54,767 nt of DNA from Myxococcales bacterium (lineage in GTDB: Bacteria > Myxococcota_A > Bradymonadia > Bradymonadales > Bradymonadaceae). Shown here piece after piece: positions 6,701-34,643 of this stretch. The stretch spans positions 1-54,767 of the forward strand of contig SKQC01000102.1 of NCBI GenBank assembly GCA_007119175.1. Reading direction: 5' to 3'. The position numbers and the translations under genes were made by a program. Every line of letters starts with the position of its first letter. The first letter of the stretch is position 1. The notes under the pieces are model-generated. The model was not told the DNA's origin and did no database searches. It saw only the letters and a list, made by a program, of their open reading frames with translations.

Positions 6701-9422
6701 CGGCAACGCGCCCGTCGGAGCCGACGACGATGCCTTCGAGTCGGGCACCGTCGCTTGCATCGACCCGATCGTCGGGCGAACGCAGTCCGACTAACCTGTC
6801 GCCGGGCAGCAACGTCGTCTGCTCCTCGGCGCGTGAGGCCCGTCCGCTGCCGGCCTCAAAGACGGCGACCTCCACGTCGACACCGTAGATCGCCCGATCG
6901 TCGAAGTCAGAAGGCTCGCAGCGAAACTCAGCGAGCCCATTGGCATCGAGCCGCCCGTCGGTGCGCGCCGTCGTCGATTCGATCTTGTCCGAAAACGGCC
7001 CAAAATCGTATTCCGGCCACCGATCCTGAAACGGCTGTGCCGCCTCGAAGCGGCACTCCACCTCGAATTCAGCGTCGGCGGCCGGCGTACCGAAGAAATA
7101 CTCTGCCTCGATATCGCCGCCGAATCCTCCGCCGTCATAGACGATGATATCGTCGACATCGACATCGACATCGATTCGCTCCGGCACGAATTCCTCGACC
7201 GAGATTTGTTGGCTGACGAGCTCCTCGTCTCCCGAAAATATCTCGACGCTCCAGCTCCCGGTGGAGGCCATCTCGGGAATCTCATAGGTGAATTCGAAGG
7301 CACCCACCTCGTCGGTCTGGGCCACTGTACTAAAGACCTCCTGGCGCCGGGCATCAGTGAGTTCGATGCCCACGGGCAGTCCCGCCTCCGCGCGGTATTG
7401 ATCACCGCGAATAAATCCGGCAAATTTCATCTCCTCGCCGGGCCGATATAGCGTCCGCTCCCCGCTCAGAGCGCCCCGATAGGGTGGATCATCGCCATAA
7501 TCTCGTCCGCCGATCGAACCCTCGACGACCTCCGTTTTCGTATCCTCCCAGTCGACATAGGCCAACTCGTCGACGCCCTCGGCGACGACGGCAAAAGGCG
7601 GCTCATTTTCCAGATCGCCCCAATTTCCGCTCAACGCGCAATGGCCGCCGCCGTCAGTTGCGCATTCCGCCAACACGCGTCCGTTCTGGCGCACCAATTC
7701 TAGATTCACATCGGCGATCGGCTGTGCGGAGTCGGCATCGATCGTCCAAACCCAGACCTCATCAACCTCGGATTCGACGTGGCTGGCGCGCTTGGCGATT
7801 AATTGCAGATCGCTGACGATGAAGCGATGACTATCGTTGAGTCCTCCCTGAAATGGGGCCGAAACCTCGATCTGATAGGCGCCCGGTTGCGGCTCGCCGA
7901 CGAGTTCCATCAGATCGATATAGGAGTGTTGAACCTCTTCGGGGCCCGGATCGAGCTCCAGGTATTTCTCGGCAATCGCAAAGGAAGCAGCTCCGCCCAT
8001 CGCGTCGCCTCCGGAGAGCCAGAACGTAAAGTGATGCCCCGCTGCATGGCGAACCACGACCCGGGCCATCTCCACGTCTCGATGGCGAATTGGAACTCGC
8101 GCCCAATCGGAGCGCTCCAGATATCGTCCATCGGCATCGATGGCCAATTCCGGCGATGGCGCCCTCGGCTCCAGGAGCTCTTCGCGTCCCTCATAGAGTT
8201 CGGCAGAATGCTCGCCCCAATCGCCAGTGCGCAGAGCGAGACCGACCGGTCCGCGCACCCCGTCGAGGTCGAGTACCAGATCAAAGCCATGCTGATGGTC
8301 GACGACCGAGACGCCGGCGTCGACGTCGAGTTCGACGAGCTCCAGCGCTCGCTGAGAGTCGACGTCACAGCGGCGCGAGACATCACGAATACTGCTCCTG
8401 ATTTCACGGTCCCAATAGCTGCGCCTGGTCTCGGCAACGGCCGGGTCGTGACACAAGACGCGCACCGTCGGACTTCCGCCGCGTTCATAGAGCCCGACTG
8501 CGCGAATCTCGAGGGTCTCCGTATCCGTGCCAACCTGGATCGACTCATCGACCTCATCCATCGGATCGCCCCCCAGTGTCGACGTCAATTGAGACCCGCC
8601 GCTGAGGTGAATTCCGTCGACGGCTCCTGCGAAGTCAATGGAGAGCGAGCGCAGGCGCACGTCGATGACGCGATCGTCGCGTTGGCTGTAGGCGACGCTT
8701 TCCAGCAAAGCGCCGTCCAGGGCCCACGAAAGTTGATCTTCTACGGCGGCGACATCGACGGGCGCCGAAAACCGCAGCTCGACGTGAGCAAATGCACCGA
8801 CCGGCCTTGCTGCCGAGATATCGACCAACTCCAGCGGTGGCGTCTCAAATGTCGTTGCAGGTGACTCGTCGAATTCCACGAGCTCCACGTCTTCGTCTCC
8901 ATCGTCGCTCTCACCGAATACAAATTCGATGACCTCAAACTCGACATCGTAGCTCTCTGCCGGCTTTAGCTCACCGTCGAATTCAATGCGGAAGACGGTG
9001 TGGTTGTCCGTTAGATTGGGCCGGTCGACATCGACTGTATTGCCGGCCTCATCAGTGATCGTGATCACCGTCCCCGGTCCGATCTGTGGATGGCCTCGAC
9101 GCACGACGGAACGATCGACGACAGCCACCAACCCCGAAGGTACAGCCCCCGGCTTACCGACGGCCCGCATCGCCACATCCCAGCGCTCCGGATCGACGAT
9201 ACGCGCTTTGTCATCCGGGTCGAAATCATCGCGCACAGCACCAGCGATCTCCGGTTTGGGAATCTCCGCAGATCGGTCGCGCTCGGCCACCTCACCGGGC
9301 TCCGGCACATCGTCGACTTCGTCGCCGCAATCACAGGCCGATGTCCCGAGCACCAATACAAGAATGAAAACCGCTATGATTCGCTGGAAAACCCCATCCA
9401 CTCTTTGAAACGGTACAAGCAT
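3744..9422 (-). CDS. alpha-2-macroglobulin family lipoprotein (YfhM/ECAM-like), thioester motif absent
   Basis: 1892 aa with lipobox LVLGTSAC and length and architecture typical of bacterial A2M, sitting directly upstream of pbpC. At the position aligning to the YPYGCLEQ thioester site it reads YPLLRLGT (nt 5136-5159). There is no Cys anywhere in the C-terminal 900 or so residues. Confidence 0.9.
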   Translation of the reverse strand: MLVPFQRVDGVFQRIIAVFILVLVLGTSACDCGDEVDDVPEPGEVAERDRSAEIPKPEIAGAVRDDFDPDDKARIVDPERWDVAMRAVGKPGAVPSGLVAVVDRSVVRRGHPQIGPGTVITITDEAGNTVDVDRPNLTDNHTVFRIEFDGELKPAESYDVEFEVIEFVFGESDDGDEDVELVEFDESPATTFETPPLELVDISAARPVGAFAHVELRFSAPVDVAAVEDQLSWALDGALLESVAYSQRDDRVIDVRLRSLSIDFAGAVDGIHLSGGSQLTSTLGGDPMDEVDESIQVGTDTETLEIRAVGLYERGGSPTVRVLCHDPAVAETRRSYWDREIRSSIRDVSRRCDVDSQRALELVELDVDAGVSVVDHQHGFDLVLDLDGVRGPVGLALRTGDWGEHSAELYEGREELLEPRAPSPELAIDADGRYLERSDWARVPIRHRDVEMARVVVRHAAGHHFTFWLSGGDAMGGAASFAIAEKYLELDPGPEEVQHSYIDLMELVGEPQPGAYQIEVSAPFQGGLNDSHRFIVSDLQLIAKRASHVESEVDEVWVWTIDADSAQPIADVNLELVRQNGRVLAECATDGGGHCALSGNWGDLENEPPFAVVAEGVDELAYVDWEDTKTEVVEGSIGGRDYGDDPPYRGALSGERTLYRPGEEMKFAGFIRGDQYRAEAGLPVGIELTDARRQEVFSTVAQTDEVGAFEFTYEIPEMASTGSWSVEIFSGDEELVSQQISVEEFVPERIDVDVDVDDIIVYDGGGFGGDIEAEYFFGTPAADAEFEVECRFEAAQPFQDRWPEYDFGPFSDKIESTTARTDGRLDANGLAEFRCEPSDFDDRAIYGVDVEVAVFEAGSGRASRAEEQTTLLPGDRLVGLRSPDDRVDASDGARLEGIVVGSDGRVADGVDSVDLELGAIRYSSTRIYRQGRTQWERERHESVDERRQVDVADGRFSMRAEPRGTSVGLYFRAQAQGAVSELEVASPRRFWGWGQRDTDPRPDDPAHLDIGGPDEITVGETAEFSFDAPADGRALVAVETARVDSWEWLDVEAGENSWEVEVEYFDPNIYVSALYVPAGDDAPEGLDRAFGVSRVNVARDRWRADVDLNVPEELEPGDTLSVEVTSETAGPDARVAVAAVDRGILTMASHEFEDPLEQLFSIRALGVETFDTVGWYADVSPQRFGGGAYAPPAPAPPAIMPVDPTAMWSGLVDLDDEGRATVDFDIPDFRGELEISAVVVDGARLGEATDHTVIRDPLALQATAPRFATHGDRFQVPLSVTNTTETTVDVDLRAVTLPDMSLMEDDTAELEIVGDDTGSLQLAPDQRGQVNFEVEVVGRAGAPQLLFEASGNGENSRHTARVPIYPDGPTEVEFEHHSVDSREFDVLSELDGWLPTSETTELWVTSIPRAPAFVHLEHVLRYPLLRLGTNLYNTVARIRPVAYLDRLLKAADPEASTRGADWRIRRGIRGVERLQRSSGQFAYWAGGSATVGPWGQAYVLDMLTTADEAGHDVPAWVLRDGLDWLDRRVQRRYGVEDLDLAVWVLARQGRPNRRAARALLSELPDDPSGRDHERALLATAALHLAGDETVGDDLRALIREPEFDESTFRFFGDHYTPARHEGLILEVAIEVFGADHELLEDLVERVADRLVDAEVGELNLHELGWSIAALGRWAEERSGSIPDARLVAAGSTVEPEVVGDDGSRSWRLHRASEYPEVRLVFDEDPEGPVSVFRRTEGVHSQAQPEFGSEGLRLQRRVRDVDGNPVSLQRVEVGDLVYVELQASHSEETTMQNLALVDRLPGGFEVEDPRPDGDVRPDWFDSSDEWSVDHFDVRDDRIEAFGSIREDQTVRFVYSMRATTAGTFDTPPAELTSMYQKHRWARIAGDQVRVIRP

Positions 9423-23246: not shown

Positions 23247-23460
23247 GATAAGACTCCTGGTCGAATGCAATTTATCGATGAATCATCACTGTAAGCGTTC
23301 AGCTCCTGGGGCCCGGGTTCAGTCCCTGGGGCCCGCGGCCAGCCTGGCCGCCTTTCGGTCTGACAGCCCGAGCCGTAGAGAACGCTACCTCGTCACTTTC
23401 TGGGCGAACTATAACCGGGCCCCATGACACACGCAATACGGCGGAGTGCACGGCTGGCTC

Positions 23461-23656
23461 AGGGTGTGTCTGAGAACTGCTAACCGAGCACCCCGAGGGC
23501 ACTTCTTCGCTTCGCTCAGGGCGCAGGGCTAGATGATTTTGGCACCATTTTTGATCGAAAAACGCAGGTTTAGCAGCGCTATATCGAGTATTTTCGACGG
23601 AAATGGTGTGAAAATCAGCCGCCAACTGCGACCGAAGCGGTTTTCAGACACACCCT
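23461..23656 (+). repeat. 196-nt rod-like imperfect palindrome, copy A (candidate structured RNA or REP/MITE-like element)
   Basis: Nested inverted repeats: 23461-23481/23636-23656, 23534-23550/23601-23617 and 23555-23561/23591-23597. Shares conserved blocks with copy B. Its G-T pairs are tolerated only as G-U on the plus strand. Confidence 0.7.
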
Positions 23657-23733
23657 AGTTTTCCTTTGCCCCATCTGCGCGTTTACCCCTACCCTCGCCG
23701 CCGAAACCGATTCCTTTCGCCACCGGAGCCGCC

Positions 23734-24419: not shown

Positions 24420-27011
24420 ATGGCGATGGCGACGTCGACTCCACCGAAGCATCGTATCTTCGTATCTGGCGCACTTTTCATCTTCGCTGCGATGTGGGGC
24501 TGTGCCGCGGACTCGGAGCGCTCTGCGAACGTCAACGAAAGACCCGCACCATCACGTATCTTCGCCTTCGACGCACCGAACTCCCGAGCTGCATTGGTGC
24601 GTCAGCTCGTCGATCGCAGATTCGACGAGGTCAAAAACCCCAAAAAACGTCCCTCCTCGATCGTATTGGCCAAAAAAACGCGCTCCTGCGGCAGCGGCGA
24701 CGACACAGACTGCGAGGACTGGCAGCTAGATGTGCCCCTCGATGTCAGCCCGAACACCGATGAGCGCCTCCAAGACATCGACTGGCAGCTTCTATTCGAC
24801 GAGGCATCACCTCGCTCGCTGAGCCGCGCCCTCGGCAGATCGGTGAGCATCTCCGATGGCGAGACGTCCTGCGCTGACGGCATCTGCACGCGCCGAGCGA
24901 TTCGGGTCTATGCCGCCGAATCGAAGGAGACGATCGTCGACGCGCGAGAGCGCTCCTACGACAGCGCCCACGAGAGAAGCTGGGCGCGAGCCAGAAAGCG
25001 ACTCTCAACAATGGACGACGACCAGTCGGTCACGGTCGGCGTTTTATTTTCTCCGCATACCCGCCCCGTCAGCAAACATTCCGTAAATTGGTTCGATGTC
25101 GACGATCCAAAACTGGTCGCCAAAAAACTCCAGCTTGAACACGAGCGCCGAATAAATGCCGGCCACAAAACGAGCCGCACCCGTTTCGACAAACTCGGTA
25201 TTTGCCGCTGGCTTCGCCCCTATTCATTCGCCAACGGCGCCGTCATCGAATGTGTGCCCCATGAGCTCACCCAACTGATCGATGAACGACCCGAATTTGT
25301 GGCCGGCGTATATCTCGACGAAAAACCAGTCATCGGCGACGGATCGGCATTCCGCGACCGCTCCGGCAGCGCCTTGAACGCCTATCTCAACGGCACCGAC
25401 GCCCGAACTGGCGCTCAGCCCTCACCGCTGACCGGTCGCGACGAAATCACCGTGGCCTACGCCGATCCAAAGGGGTTTTACCAGACCAATCGCCACCCGG
25501 CGTTCTTCGAGCGCGAACCGACCTGCATCGGTCGATTCTGCACATTTCGATCCCGGGTTCGCACCCTGGAGCGCTGCGACGCCCAGTCCTGCTGGAGTGC
25601 CCCCGATCAGGGCACACCGCTGAGCCACGGCTCCAGAGTCATCGGTGGTTTTCAGTCCATATTAGACGGCCAGGATCCGGACCTTACCAACCAGTCGGCG
25701 CGGCGCCAGCGCTCCTACGGCGCCTTCGAGGCCGGACTTCACCTCTACGATACCGACGACTCCGGCAACGCCGCCCTGAGCGCCCTGGAAGAAGCCGCGA
25801 GACTACACGACGGCCGGACCACCGCCGATATCTGGGGTTATTCGGCCTCCACCAACGGCTGTGATGACCCACGCGGACGCTGGGTGCCCTGGACGGCGGC
25901 CATGGACACCGCCTACGACCGCGGGCTACTCGCCGTACAGATCACCGGAAATTCCGTGGAGCGCCACCGCTCGTCCTGCACCACGACCGGTCTGGCCAGC
26001 CGCAGCGACTCCCTCGTCGTCGGTGGATTCGCCGATACGCGCCAAACCCTGATGAGTCAGTGGCGCTACGACTCCGCCCCATTGTCCTGGGCCTCAATCA
26101 CAGACCTGCAGGCATCCGATCGCTGTCCCGGCGAGCAATTATCGTGGAATGAAGATCGATGCTACTCCTCGGCAGAAGGCGGCGGCGATCTTTTCGTCGG
26201 CGATAAACTCCGCCCGCGAGTGCGCTCAGTCGTCGACCTGACAGCGCCTTCAGGCCGACGCTTCTCCGCCGTTCGCACCGGTCGCGGCGACAACGACTAC
26301 CAGCAGGTTTGCTGCGGCTCCAGCCACGCCGCCCCCAAAGTGGCCGCCGCCGCGGTCAGCCTCCGAGACTGGGGCTACCGGCGCGGTCTCGCCATCTACG
26401 ACGACCCGACTCTCCTCTACGTCATGATGTTGCTCGGCGGTGATTTTACCGGCGAATTTGCCTCGCGAAGAGCTGTAGACCCCCTCGACCAATACGCCTC
26501 GCGCCCCACCGACGACTATCGCCGCCGCCGTGGTTTTTCCCGAATCTGGGGTGCCGGCAGACTCCACGTCCAGCGATTGCTCGGCGAGGGGTCGACCCTC
26601 GATTCACCTTTTTCATGGGCTTTAGGCACCATGACCATCGACGACGAGACCGTCATCTGGCGCCGGCTCGGCATTCCACCGACGCCTGCCGACACCAGCG
26701 AGATTGTCGCCCTCTTCGCATGGGACGAGCCGGGCCTGTCGGCACAGCCCGACGACGCGGCAGCCCGGATCAATTTCACACTCCGGGCGGCGCCGCCGAA
26801 TATCGACCGCACCTGCCCGGCCCATCCCAACAATCCCATGACGGTCATCGGCAACGACATCAGTTACGACACAAAAAAGCGCATCGCCCTCGGCCCTGAG
26901 CTGGTCGCCCAAAACCCCCATATTATCGGCCAATGCATCTACGTGGGCATCCACGCCATAGACCTCCCCGGCCCTCGCGAGGGGGCATATATCACCTACC
27001 GAAGCCGATGA
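24420..27011 (+). CDS. divergent subtilase (peptidase S8)-like lipoprotein
   Basis: Lipobox FAAMWGC. Candidate catalytic motifs are VAYADPKG (Asp), SHGSRVIGG (His), VQITGNS (oxyanion Asn) and CCGSSHAAPKVAAAAVSL (Ser, compare GTSMAAPHVAG). There are large insertions and a domain of about 330 aa that I could not assign ahead of the candidate Asp motif. Confidence 0.55.
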   Translation: MAMATSTPPKHRIFVSGALFIFAAMWGCAADSERSANVNERPAPSRIFAFDAPNSRAALVRQLVDRRFDEVKNPKKRPSSIVLAKKTRSCGSGDDTDCEDWQLDVPLDVSPNTDERLQDIDWQLLFDEASPRSLSRALGRSVSISDGETSCADGICTRRAIRVYAAESKETIVDARERSYDSAHERSWARARKRLSTMDDDQSVTVGVLFSPHTRPVSKHSVNWFDVDDPKLVAKKLQLEHERRINAGHKTSRTRFDKLGICRWLRPYSFANGAVIECVPHELTQLIDERPEFVAGVYLDEKPVIGDGSAFRDRSGSALNAYLNGTDARTGAQPSPLTGRDEITVAYADPKGFYQTNRHPAFFEREPTCIGRFCTFRSRVRTLERCDAQSCWSAPDQGTPLSHGSRVIGGFQSILDGQDPDLTNQSARRQRSYGAFEAGLHLYDTDDSGNAALSALEEAARLHDGRTTADIWGYSASTNGCDDPRGRWVPWTAAMDTAYDRGLLAVQITGNSVERHRSSCTTTGLASRSDSLVVGGFADTRQTLMSQWRYDSAPLSWASITDLQASDRCPGEQLSWNEDRCYSSAEGGGDLFVGDKLRPRVRSVVDLTAPSGRRFSAVRTGRGDNDYQQVCCGSSHAAPKVAAAAVSLRDWGYRRGLAIYDDPTLLYVMMLLGGDFTGEFASRRAVDPLDQYASRPTDDYRRRRGFSRIWGAGRLHVQRLLGEGSTLDSPFSWALGTMTIDDETVIWRRLGIPPTPADTSEIVALFAWDEPGLSAQPDDAAARINFTLRAAPPNIDRTCPAHPNNPMTVIGNDISYDTKKRIALGPELVAQNPHIIGQCIYVGIHAIDLPGPREGAYITYRSR

Positions 27012-27039
27012 TCCCCCCCTGCAGAATGCAGCTTATTTA

Positions 27040-27207
27040 GTTCCCGTCCGGAAATTCCGATTTGGAGCAGAGGCGAGATGAAATCGACGAGATGGCCATA
27101 TCGCAAAACCGAAGGGATATCCGTAGGTTATTTCAAGTGTTGAGCGAATGGCCAGATCGCGATTTCAGCCGCCACCTGCGACATTCATGGGGTTTCCGGA
27201 CGGGAAC
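27040..27207 (+). repeat. 168-nt rod-like imperfect palindrome, copy B (same family as 23461-23656)
   Basis: Outer stem 27040-27058/27189-27207 (17 WC + 2 T-G pairs). Inner stems are tgaaatcg/cgatttca and tggcca/tggcca. Conserved block tcagccgccacctgcgac at 27165-27182. It lies between two convergent gene ends. Confidence 0.7.
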
Positions 27208-27210
27208 CGT

Positions 27211-27438
27211 TTACGTGGGGCGCACCGTCCAGATTTCACGACCGGTCTTCAACAATTTTTTGTCGATCGTCACCTCCGTGCCCTCGCGCATGGCCCGCTC
27301 GTGGATCTGAGCTTCGTCGGCCTTATCGCCGTCGCAAAAGCCGATTGGATTGCGCGACCGAGGTGATTTGATCATCACCTGAAATTCGCCGTGATCCCAC
27401 TTCGTCTGTGTCTCGTTGCTATGAGGCTCAATGGCCAT
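27211..27438 (-). CDS. hypothetical small protein (75 aa)
   Basis: High third-position GC (about three quarters G/C by eye) like neighbouring genes. Sits 35 nt downstream of the PpiC gene on the same strand. No family recognised. Confidence 0.4.
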   Translation of the reverse strand: MAIEPHSNETQTKWDHGEFQVMIKSPRSRNPIGFCDGDKADEAQIHERAMREGTEVTIDKKLLKTGREIWTVRPT

Positions 27439-34272: not shown

Positions 34273-34473
34273 TCTCCTAAGGCAACCAAATTTGGCGTAT
34301 CATCCAAATTGCGTCGGCAACGGTGCGCACCATAGTGATCACCGACTCCCGTTACAACGCCCGCACCAGCAGCCTGTGAATTTCCCCGACCCTGCCTTGG
34401 CCTGCCCTTTGCCGGGCCCTAGACGGAACGTGATTTAAATGAAACGCGGTATCGGCGTGATGATTGGGCCAAA

Positions 34474-34491
34474 GTTCGGTTCGAACCGAAC
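34474..34491. promoter_or_regulatory. perfect 18-bp palindrome gttcggttcgaaccgaac in the pepF/cls divergent intergenic region (candidate operator)
   Basis: The 18-mer is exactly self-complementary. It lies 202 nt upstream of pepF and 153 nt upstream of the cls ATG. Confidence 0.4.
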
Positions 34492-34643
34492 GCAGGCGTA
34501 GCATCGCTACTTCAAGCGAGGATCGGCCGAAAGATGGTTCAATCAGCCGGCGAGGCATATGTTTCAGTTAAATCGTCTTTCGTTTAATGTTGTCGATATG
34601 CTGCCATCGCGCCCTTTCCACTTTCCGGACGCCGGCCTCGTCG

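Follow-up and report, generated by a model that had tools for sequence, protein, structure and literature searches.

A family of rod-forming palindromic elements with a maintained single-stranded fold in intergenic DNA of a Bradymonadales-like bacterium

A hairpin-forming element occurs three times (copies A, B and C) in the intergenic DNA of contig SKQC01000102.1 (assembly GCA_007119175.1), a stretch of 54,767 nucleotides from a Myxococcales bacterium that was analysed at its full length and is hereafter called the window. Pfam recognised housekeeping and signalling genes in the window, which is plain chromosomal DNA from a Bradymonadales-like organism. Metagenome contigs in ENA match it at 99.9%, and the 18 single-nucleotide polymorphisms (SNPs) per 20.2 kb between the window and contig L110 represent the strain background. 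Copy A lies in the divergent spacer between the AlaDH and nitroreductase genes and ends 77 nt 5' of the nitroreductase ATG (23734). Copy B starts 28 nt past the stop (27011) of an S8-like gene on the plus strand and ends 3 nt short of the stop (27211) of a convergent gene for a 75-aa protein. Copy C lies in the divergent spacer between the peptidase-M3 and PLD-like genes and ends 57 nt 5' of the PLD-like ATG (34644). What the data show is a palindromic-element family whose single-stranded fold is maintained.

Copy B (27040–27207, plus strand) is a near-continuous rod hairpin of 168 nt, and every statement of the initial annotation on its coordinates and stems agreed with the sequence. The outer stem pairs 27040–27058 with 27189–27207 through 17 Watson–Crick and two T·G pairs, to which the minimum free energy (MFE) fold adds a twentieth pair, 27059/27188 (G·T), giving three G·T in all. 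The inner stem tgaaatcg/cgatttca is formed by 27079–27086 and 27160–27167, a GA/GA internal loop sits between tggcca/tggcca, and a further interrupted stem leads up to the apex. With RNA parameters, the plus strand of 27030–27215 reached an MFE of −94.3 kcal/mol against −52.5 ± 4.2 kcal/mol for 200 dinucleotide shuffles (z −10.0), and the minus strand folded 12 kcal/mol more weakly (−81.9, z −8.1). Three blocks of this rod recur in the other copies. The left core GCAGAGGCGAGATGA (27067–27081, plus strand; counterparts at 23523–23536 in A and, in part, at 34454–34463 in C) pairs with the right core TCAGCCGCCACCTGCGAC (27165–27182, plus strand), leaving a conserved 1-nt bulge and an A·G opposition. 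The right core is 17/18 identical to 23615–23632 of A, and C retains only TCAGCCG.C.A. The apical block AAAACCGAAGG...TTTCAAG (27105–27138, plus strand), aligned with 23558–23589 in A and 34488–34517 in C, forms a conserved internal loop below a small variable terminal hairpin.

Copy A (23460–23657, plus strand) is a rod hairpin of 198 nt with weak extra pairs out to 23456–23660, and the interval 23455–23665 folds with an MFE of −103 (z −9.6). Its 5' arm carries a 38-nt side hairpin (23482–23519, plus strand; GAGC...GCTC around CGAGG/CTTCG) that is missing from B and C. When this side branch was removed before a sequence-only MAFFT alignment with B, 91 of 172 columns were identical (53%) over the whole length, in the same orientation and with identities reaching into the apex and the outer stem. 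The two copies share the left core GCAG(.)GGC.AGATGA, the outer-stem part GTC.G..AA / TT..C.GAC and the apex AAAAC.G.AGG..TA.C.G...G.TAT.TC.AGT.TT. This whole-length alignment upholds the homology that the initial annotation had claimed and rules out a chance likeness confined to the 18-mer TCAGCCGCCANCTGCGAC. Zero-mismatch matches to the 18-mer occur at two window sites only, 23615 and 27165, and a tolerance of up to three mismatches added one more site, 12034 (3 mismatches), which lies outside any hairpin; at that tolerance, chance alone would give 0.39 matches. In the RNAalifold consensus of A and B, 26 of the 46 pairs were unchanged, four were changed on one side, 15 were changed on both sides and none was broken; with the 3' partners slid by 1–3 columns, only 0–3 both-sided changes and 30–48% pairing were left. 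The outer stems have 10 of 20 pairs in common.

A covariance-model search had been among the checks proposed in the initial annotation. A model that contained only A and B was applied to the full window, with the filters switched off. It recovered B at 188.6 bits and A at 111 bits and gave a new plus-strand match at 34429–34577 (28.3 bits, E 2.4e-6); the next-best plus-strand match in the window reached 9.8 bits. The new match belongs to copy C (34420–34586, plus strand), a G·U-rich rod hairpin of 167 nt that had not been noticed before. It has GGCGTGATGATTGG in common with the left core and AATCAGCCGGCGA with the right one, and its AACGCAGGcgTAGCAtCGCTAcTTCAAG is also found in the apex of A. 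The plus strand of C folds with an MFE of −75.7 (z −3.9) against −57.8 (z −1.8) for the minus strand, whose fold is weak because the rod contains nine G·U pairs. A three-copy model was then derived from a manual alignment, with gaps written as N and C placed as cmsearch had aligned it. It detected no fourth copy in the window and gave no match at E ≤ 0.1 when 0.9 Mb of unrelated control loci were scanned, and neither model, with filters off, found a copy in 72 kb from relatives. Considering the whole-length homology of A and B, the independent detection of C and the clean controls, the three copies are a real family.

Apart from the side branch of A, all three copies are single rods of 160–170 nt built on a common plan. 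A variable outer stem forms the base, and a helix of GCAG/CTGC plus GGC/GCC, replaced by other pairs in C, follows toward the tip. Next, 5'-GGC(G)-N-G-A-UGA stands opposite 5'-UCA-G-C-(C)GCC in a conserved asymmetric arrangement that creates a one-base bulge and the A·G opposition. The adjoining helix of 7–11 bp has a copy-specific sequence (UGAUUUU/AAAAUCA, UGAAAUCG/CGAUUUCA and UGAUUGGGCCA/UGGUUCAAUCA), with a variable stretch beyond it. At the tip, AAC.G.AGG and UYCRAG lie opposite each other in a conserved apical internal loop, which is capped by a small terminal hairpin. In the three-copy alignment, 96.9% of the cells at paired positions were paired and 20 of 46 pairs had changed on both sides, compared with 0–6 in slid controls; these counts rest on three sequences, with the C row fitted to the model, and have no power for an R-scape-type test, although they strongly favour the fold. 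The stems thus change in sequence and remain complementary, as had been claimed, with 15 both-sided changes between A and B and 20 once C is added; most stem pairs have given way to others, whereas the mid-stem bulge with its A·G mismatch and the apical internal loop are kept. Within each copy the arms are about 90% complementary while the copies are about 50% diverged.

The fold is also strand-specific. When each 5' arm was aligned to its own 3' arm in reverse complement, the transition-type mismatches fell into 19 G·T against two A·C over the three copies (binomial p 2.2e-4), in agreement with the plus-strand-specific wobble pairs of the initial annotation. With RNA parameters the plus strand is 12–18 kcal/mol more stable than the minus strand in every copy, and with DNA parameters the difference is 5–10 kcal/mol. 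The sole strain SNP in B, G at 27116 in the window and A in contig L110, turns the G·U pair 27116/27132 into A-U. The 19:2 bias argues that the fold is maintained on the plus strand only, and hence that the element acts as RNA or as single-stranded DNA (ssDNA). Since neither duplex-DNA recognition nor arm-to-arm correction by template switching predicts such a bias, the maintained object is the plus single strand. The initial annotation had taken the conserved core, the covarying helices and the plus-strand wobble pairs as a signature of selection on RNA or ssDNA structure; the fold and the strand bias stand, whereas compensatory change is also known from REPINs, which are palindromic mobile elements, and is not in itself proof of an RNA gene.

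The sites of the rods were compared with their counterparts in syntenic relatives. In contigs L113 and L114, a PpiC-like gene follows the S8-like gene by 7–36 bp and copy B is absent. The AlaDH–nitroreductase spacer of L114 measures 215 bp against 487 bp in the window and holds no rod, with AlaDH being 87% identical. At site C, a pairwise alignment with L113, whose PLD orthologue is 74% identical, placed the flanks CTTTGCCG ... CGATaTGCTGcCA on either side of 34416–34593, a segment of 178 nt that contains the whole rod and is replaced by 53 unrelated nt in L113. Because the conserved flanks bracket the entire rod, it is the complete rod that a site either has or lacks. None of the three copies occurs in the matching spacers of the syntenic relatives, which is insertion behaviour and marks them as DNA that is, or once was, mobile. 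A, B and C are therefore lineage-specific intergenic insertions, and a conserved RNA locus is ruled out. The notion that the outer stems were pre-existing terminators hit by a shorter element was rejected on the constant rod length of 160–170 nt, the outer-stem pairs common to A and B (10 of 20) and the flanks of site C.

Further copies were sought more widely. The ten contigs reached via the homologues of the S8-like and 75-aa proteins (L113–L122) contain no copy. The exact 17-mer used for scanning occurs at no fewer than 109 loci in GTDB genomes, and those listed are single chance matches in unrelated high-GC taxa with no hairpin, no left block and no match to the three-copy model. In the JGI metagenomes, all 17 matches to the pattern GATGA-N65-95-17mer were chance by folding and by the three-copy model, and the corresponding scan of IMG/VR gave 32 matches, of which 26 represent one phage gene and the rest were chance on the same grounds. 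A distant plasmid BLAST with A and B yielded no relevant match, and copies that might have been mis-called as ORFs were sought with a chimera of every open six-frame segment from the three copies, which found nothing at E ≤ 10 among 5.8 billion proteins. The exact-pattern negatives say little on the range of the family because copy C itself, which has no exact 17-mer, fails these patterns, and even the nearest database relatives share just 44–87% protein identity, which limits the reach of all these negatives. Two sets of recurrent sequences were met during these scans. The 17-mer recurs in seven Pyrinomonadaceae/Blastocatellia contigs (L010, L018, L021, L052, L054, L100 and L104) without a model match, probably as one conserved coding segment of that clade that is unrelated to the element. 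The 26 viral contigs of IMG/VR (within L140–L171) carry one near-identical two-block stretch of 87 nt, a conserved gene of a phage group without a hairpin.

The genes and small features around the rods were also inspected. The S8-like gene (24420–27011, plus strand) encodes 863 aa with a weak Peptidase_S8 match, and its product has only three homologues (44–50% identity) among the 5.8 billion proteins, all on syntenic Bradymonadales-like contigs. Immediately 5' of copy B, a small terminator-like hairpin CTGCAGAATGCAG followed by CTTATTTA (27019–27031, plus strand) comes after the S8-like stop; it seems to be this gene's own terminator, upstream of the rod. The 75-aa open reading frame (27211–27438, minus strand) belongs to a conserved small-protein family without a Pfam domain, whose 125 homologues occur in Bradymonas, Persicimonas and other Myxococcota. 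Its neighbourhoods in relatives are quite different, and L113 and L114 have no such gene between the S8-like and the PpiC-like one, so that the gene and the copy B hairpin are both extra at that site. A short way 5' of copy A, the 20-nt sequence GTTCAGCCCCTGGGGCCCGG occurs twice in direct tandem (23297–23335, TRF score 64) and has an inverted partner about 85 nt downstream (23408–23427), and the region 23271–23460 showed no significant folding (z −0.8). Inside copy A, TGGCACCATTTTTGA (23540–23555, plus strand) bears a likeness to a sigma-54 −24/−12 element (TGGCAC-N5-TTGC), with GA instead of GC at −12, and it is not conserved in the other two copies. In the AlaDH–nitroreductase spacer of L114, CAGGGCTCGATGA (8660–8672) agrees with the left core of copy A in 12 of 13 letters, with about 0.2 such matches expected by chance. 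Only a local hairpin of about 50 nt exists there, with no rod and no response from the covariance models, and the match could be a coincidence or a remnant.

Taken together, the evidence points to a non-autonomous, lineage-restricted family of palindromic insertions, whose unit would be one long imperfect hairpin of about 165–170 nt with its single-stranded fold under selection. The two conserved asymmetric motifs are predicted to be recognised by a trans-acting protein encoded elsewhere, either the enzyme that mobilises the element or a protein that binds or processes RNA. Each copy runs in the same sense as its nearest gene, two of them 57–77 nt 5' of a start codon and one 28 nt 3' of a stop codon, and this co-orientation suggests that the selected form is most likely a co-transcribed RNA hairpin in 5' and 3' untranslated regions (UTRs). 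Such a long double-stranded module may serve as an exonuclease barrier, a terminator or an RNase III substrate and so alter the fate of the mRNA. We give about an even chance to this combined reading, in which a mobile or formerly mobile rod would be included by read-through in neighbouring mRNAs and would act, through its two presumed protein-contact motifs, as a UTR module for stability, termination or RNase III processing. That the copies form a family, were inserted, keep their fold and favour one strand is shown by the data; transcription, protein recognition, the effect on mRNA and the mode of mobilisation are the predicted parts of the reading.

Several observations weigh against this reading. 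The known copies number just three, lying within 11 kb of each other in a single 55-kb window, and their divergence of about 50% is unlike active populations of miniature inverted-repeat transposable elements (MITEs) or REPINs, which cluster around a master sequence. No further copy came to light in GTDB, the JGI metagenomes, IMG/VR or plasmids, a weak objection in view of the exact motifs used. The copies share no terminal inverted repeats (TIRs), their termini being unrelated (CAGGGTGTG / GTTCCCGTC / TAGACGGAA), and neither a target-site duplication (TSD) nor a common target motif was seen at their flanks, where the closest approach to a repeat is TTTA / cgTTTA at B only, offset by 2 nt. Consensus scans revealed no sigma-70-type promoter. 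A mobilising enzyme was not identified; the lack of any transposase, integrase or reverse transcriptase in the window by Pfam fits a non-autonomous element. In addition, the GC skew of the plus strand is negative across the whole window, so that by the usual rule the plus strand is not the lagging-strand template. The skew speaks against an ssDNA route of the IS200 or REPIN type, not against RNA, and RNA is mildly favoured by it.

The initial annotation had also offered a new structured-RNA family as an alternative to a palindromic one. The palindromic family with a maintained fold was borne out, whereas a structured-RNA family is not established because the copies behave as insertions and only three exist. 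In its simplest form, that alternative would make the copies stand-alone genes for small RNAs (sRNAs), each a rod of about 170 nt with its own promoter, an end at a U-rich stretch and a protein-binding loop or bulge, multiplied by duplication. The plus-strand-only wobble pairs (19:2), the both-sided pair changes and the conserved asymmetric loops agree with such genes, as do the similar rod length of 160–170 nt and the T-rich stretches specific to the plus strand: A is followed by TAGTTTTCCTTTG and B by CCGTTTAC, and C has TCTTTCGTTTAATGTT at its end. However, relatives with 74–87% identity in housekeeping proteins lack the rods in their orthologous spacers, no Rfam match and no promoter-like site emerged from the scans, the divergence is far above what is usual for paralogous sRNAs in one genome, and the two copies lying 57–77 nt from a downstream start codon look more UTR-like than a separate gene would. 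Stand-alone sRNA genes are accordingly considered unlikely.

A bolder possibility, equally tentative, is an undescribed class of rod RNAs of about 170 nt in an uncultured Bradymonadales lineage, in which the RNA fold itself, with its conserved apical internal loop and mid-stem bulge/A·G motif, would be selected and recognised by a protein, and the copies would have spread to UTRs, possibly via an RNA or nascent-strand intermediate and not through a classical transposase. If this were true, the element would be a mobile structured RNA and not a MITE that merely happens to fold.

The strand bias might instead mark a processed DNA strand. In this rather improbable explanation, the element would be of the REPIN-like or IS200/IS605 type, with the hairpin as the ssDNA substrate of a single-copy HUH (RAYT-like) transposase encoded elsewhere. 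HUH Y1 transposition, known from IS200/IS605 and REP/RAYT systems, leaves neither TIRs nor TSDs and acts on the lagging-strand template. The lack of TIRs and TSDs at the three copies is what such transposition would leave, and the plus strand is the more stable one with DNA parameters as well. The two inverted conserved blocks, 78–83 nt apart with a compensating spacer, are arranged as in REPINs (PMC3116915). Against this explanation, the blocks GCAG.GGC.AGATGA and TCAGCCGCCANCTGC are internal, about 25–40 nt inside the rod, and not terminal as the short palindromes (REPs) at the ends of a REPIN are; they are not self-palindromic and have no 5' GTAG. By GC skew the plus strand is not the lagging-strand template, the nine G·T pairs of copy C would weaken a DNA hairpin far more than an RNA hairpin (−36.8 kcal/mol with DNA parameters), the window contains no Y1 transposase, and the divergence goes far beyond that of REPIN populations.

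An ordinary double-stranded MITE, in which long terminal inverted repeats serve a DDE transposase and the fold is under no selection, would account for a short, non-coding, palindromic unit found in intergenic DNA as lineage-specific insertions. The initial annotation had named identical termini and target-site duplications as the marks of such an element, and neither was found in the three copies: the termini are wholly different (CAGGGTG.., GTTCCCG.., TAGACGG..) and the conserved parts are internal and apical. The 19:2 bias would be unexpected for duplex recognition, and the arms stay about 90% complementary despite the divergence of about 50% between copies, all of which makes this explanation very improbable. 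The idea that unrelated local hairpins, such as terminators, share a short motif by chance can draw on the many unrelated high-GC genomes in which the exact 17-mer occurs, but it is practically negligible given the alignment of apex, core and rod length over the whole element, covariance-model E-values of 1e-29 to 1e-6 in the window with none in 0.97 Mb of other DNA, and fold z-scores of −10, −9.6 and −3.9.

With three copies at present, the element is a well-documented curiosity and not a discovery. If it were confirmed genome-wide, it would constitute a repeat family of the little-studied predatory Bradymonadales with about 50% identity between copies and yet a strand-specific rod with two asymmetric motifs. 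A rod that is kept through such drift suggests that a folded single strand is recognised and that neighbouring mRNAs are affected, and the compensatory variants of such a family would be a natural series in which to study the upkeep of palindromic mobile elements or their co-option in UTRs.

Among known families, no match was found in Rfam 15, which gave none in the window at gathering thresholds and only noise of at most 15 bits at E ≤ 10 around A, B and C, consistent with the earlier remark that no described family fits. Coding potential was rejected, as reading frames are not conserved between the copies; a tRNA-derived element was rejected with ARAGORN reporting 0 genes, and a retron msd with no reverse transcriptase nearby. 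The 6S RNA resembles the element as a largely double-stranded rod of about 170–190 nt with conserved internal loops, but no 6S match appeared in Rfam at E ≤ 10, and the element exists in three diverged copies that are all missing from the orthologous loci of relatives. The attC sites of integrons likewise drift in sequence while keeping an imperfect hairpin with conserved unpaired or extrahelical positions, and are strand-specific and active as a folded single strand. Unlike the element, they measure 57–141 nt, carry basal R''/R' boxes (RYYYAAC...GTTRRRY) and follow cassette ORFs near intI. An attC identity was rejected, as there are no R boxes (GTT...AAC occurs in the wrong order and in B only), the flanking genes are syntenic chromosomal ones and the window has no integrase.

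REPINs are the nearest point of comparison. They are REP doublets in intergenic DNA that form hairpins "in ssDNA or mRNA" and in which compensatory changes are common (PMC3116915). The element shares with them a short, non-coding, intergenic and multi-copy nature, inverted conserved blocks with a 70–80-nt spacer in one hairpin, and the lack of a TIR/TSD signature, the mobilising enzyme of REPINs being encoded elsewhere. The hairpin-forming spacer with compensatory changes, a REPIN property, is likewise found here, as the 20 both-sided pairs and 96.9% paired cells attest. It differs in its rod of about 170 nt against about 100 nt, in conserving the mid-stem and apex instead of the ends, in having no GTAG-type REPs, in a favoured strand that is not the lagging-strand template, and in copies that are about 50% diverged and not a tight population around a master sequence. 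REPINs number tens to hundreds of similar copies per genome; the DNA covered here gave three copies in 54.8 kb of the window and none in 72 kb of relatives. The single-copy RAYT gene that REPIN repeats flank was not found in the window.

ERIC, YPAL, Correia (NEMIS) and RUP elements are bacterial MITEs, imperfect palindromes of 100–170 bp in intergenic, often transcribed DNA that give long RNA hairpins, and the orientation of the hairpin influences mRNA stability, processing by RNase E or III, or termination. The ERIC, YPAL and Correia types act as RNA hairpins transcribed with their neighbours and so are parallels in function. All four have a recognisable consensus, conserved termini and often TA-like target duplications, with copies that are typically 70–95% alike. 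None of these consensus sequences, termini or duplications is present in the element, and neither Rfam nor BLAST indicated any similarity. The mechanism proposed for the rods, a mobile palindrome that would fold in the mRNAs of its neighbours, thus resembles that of the REPIN, ERIC and Correia-type elements, with membership in any of these families not being claimed.

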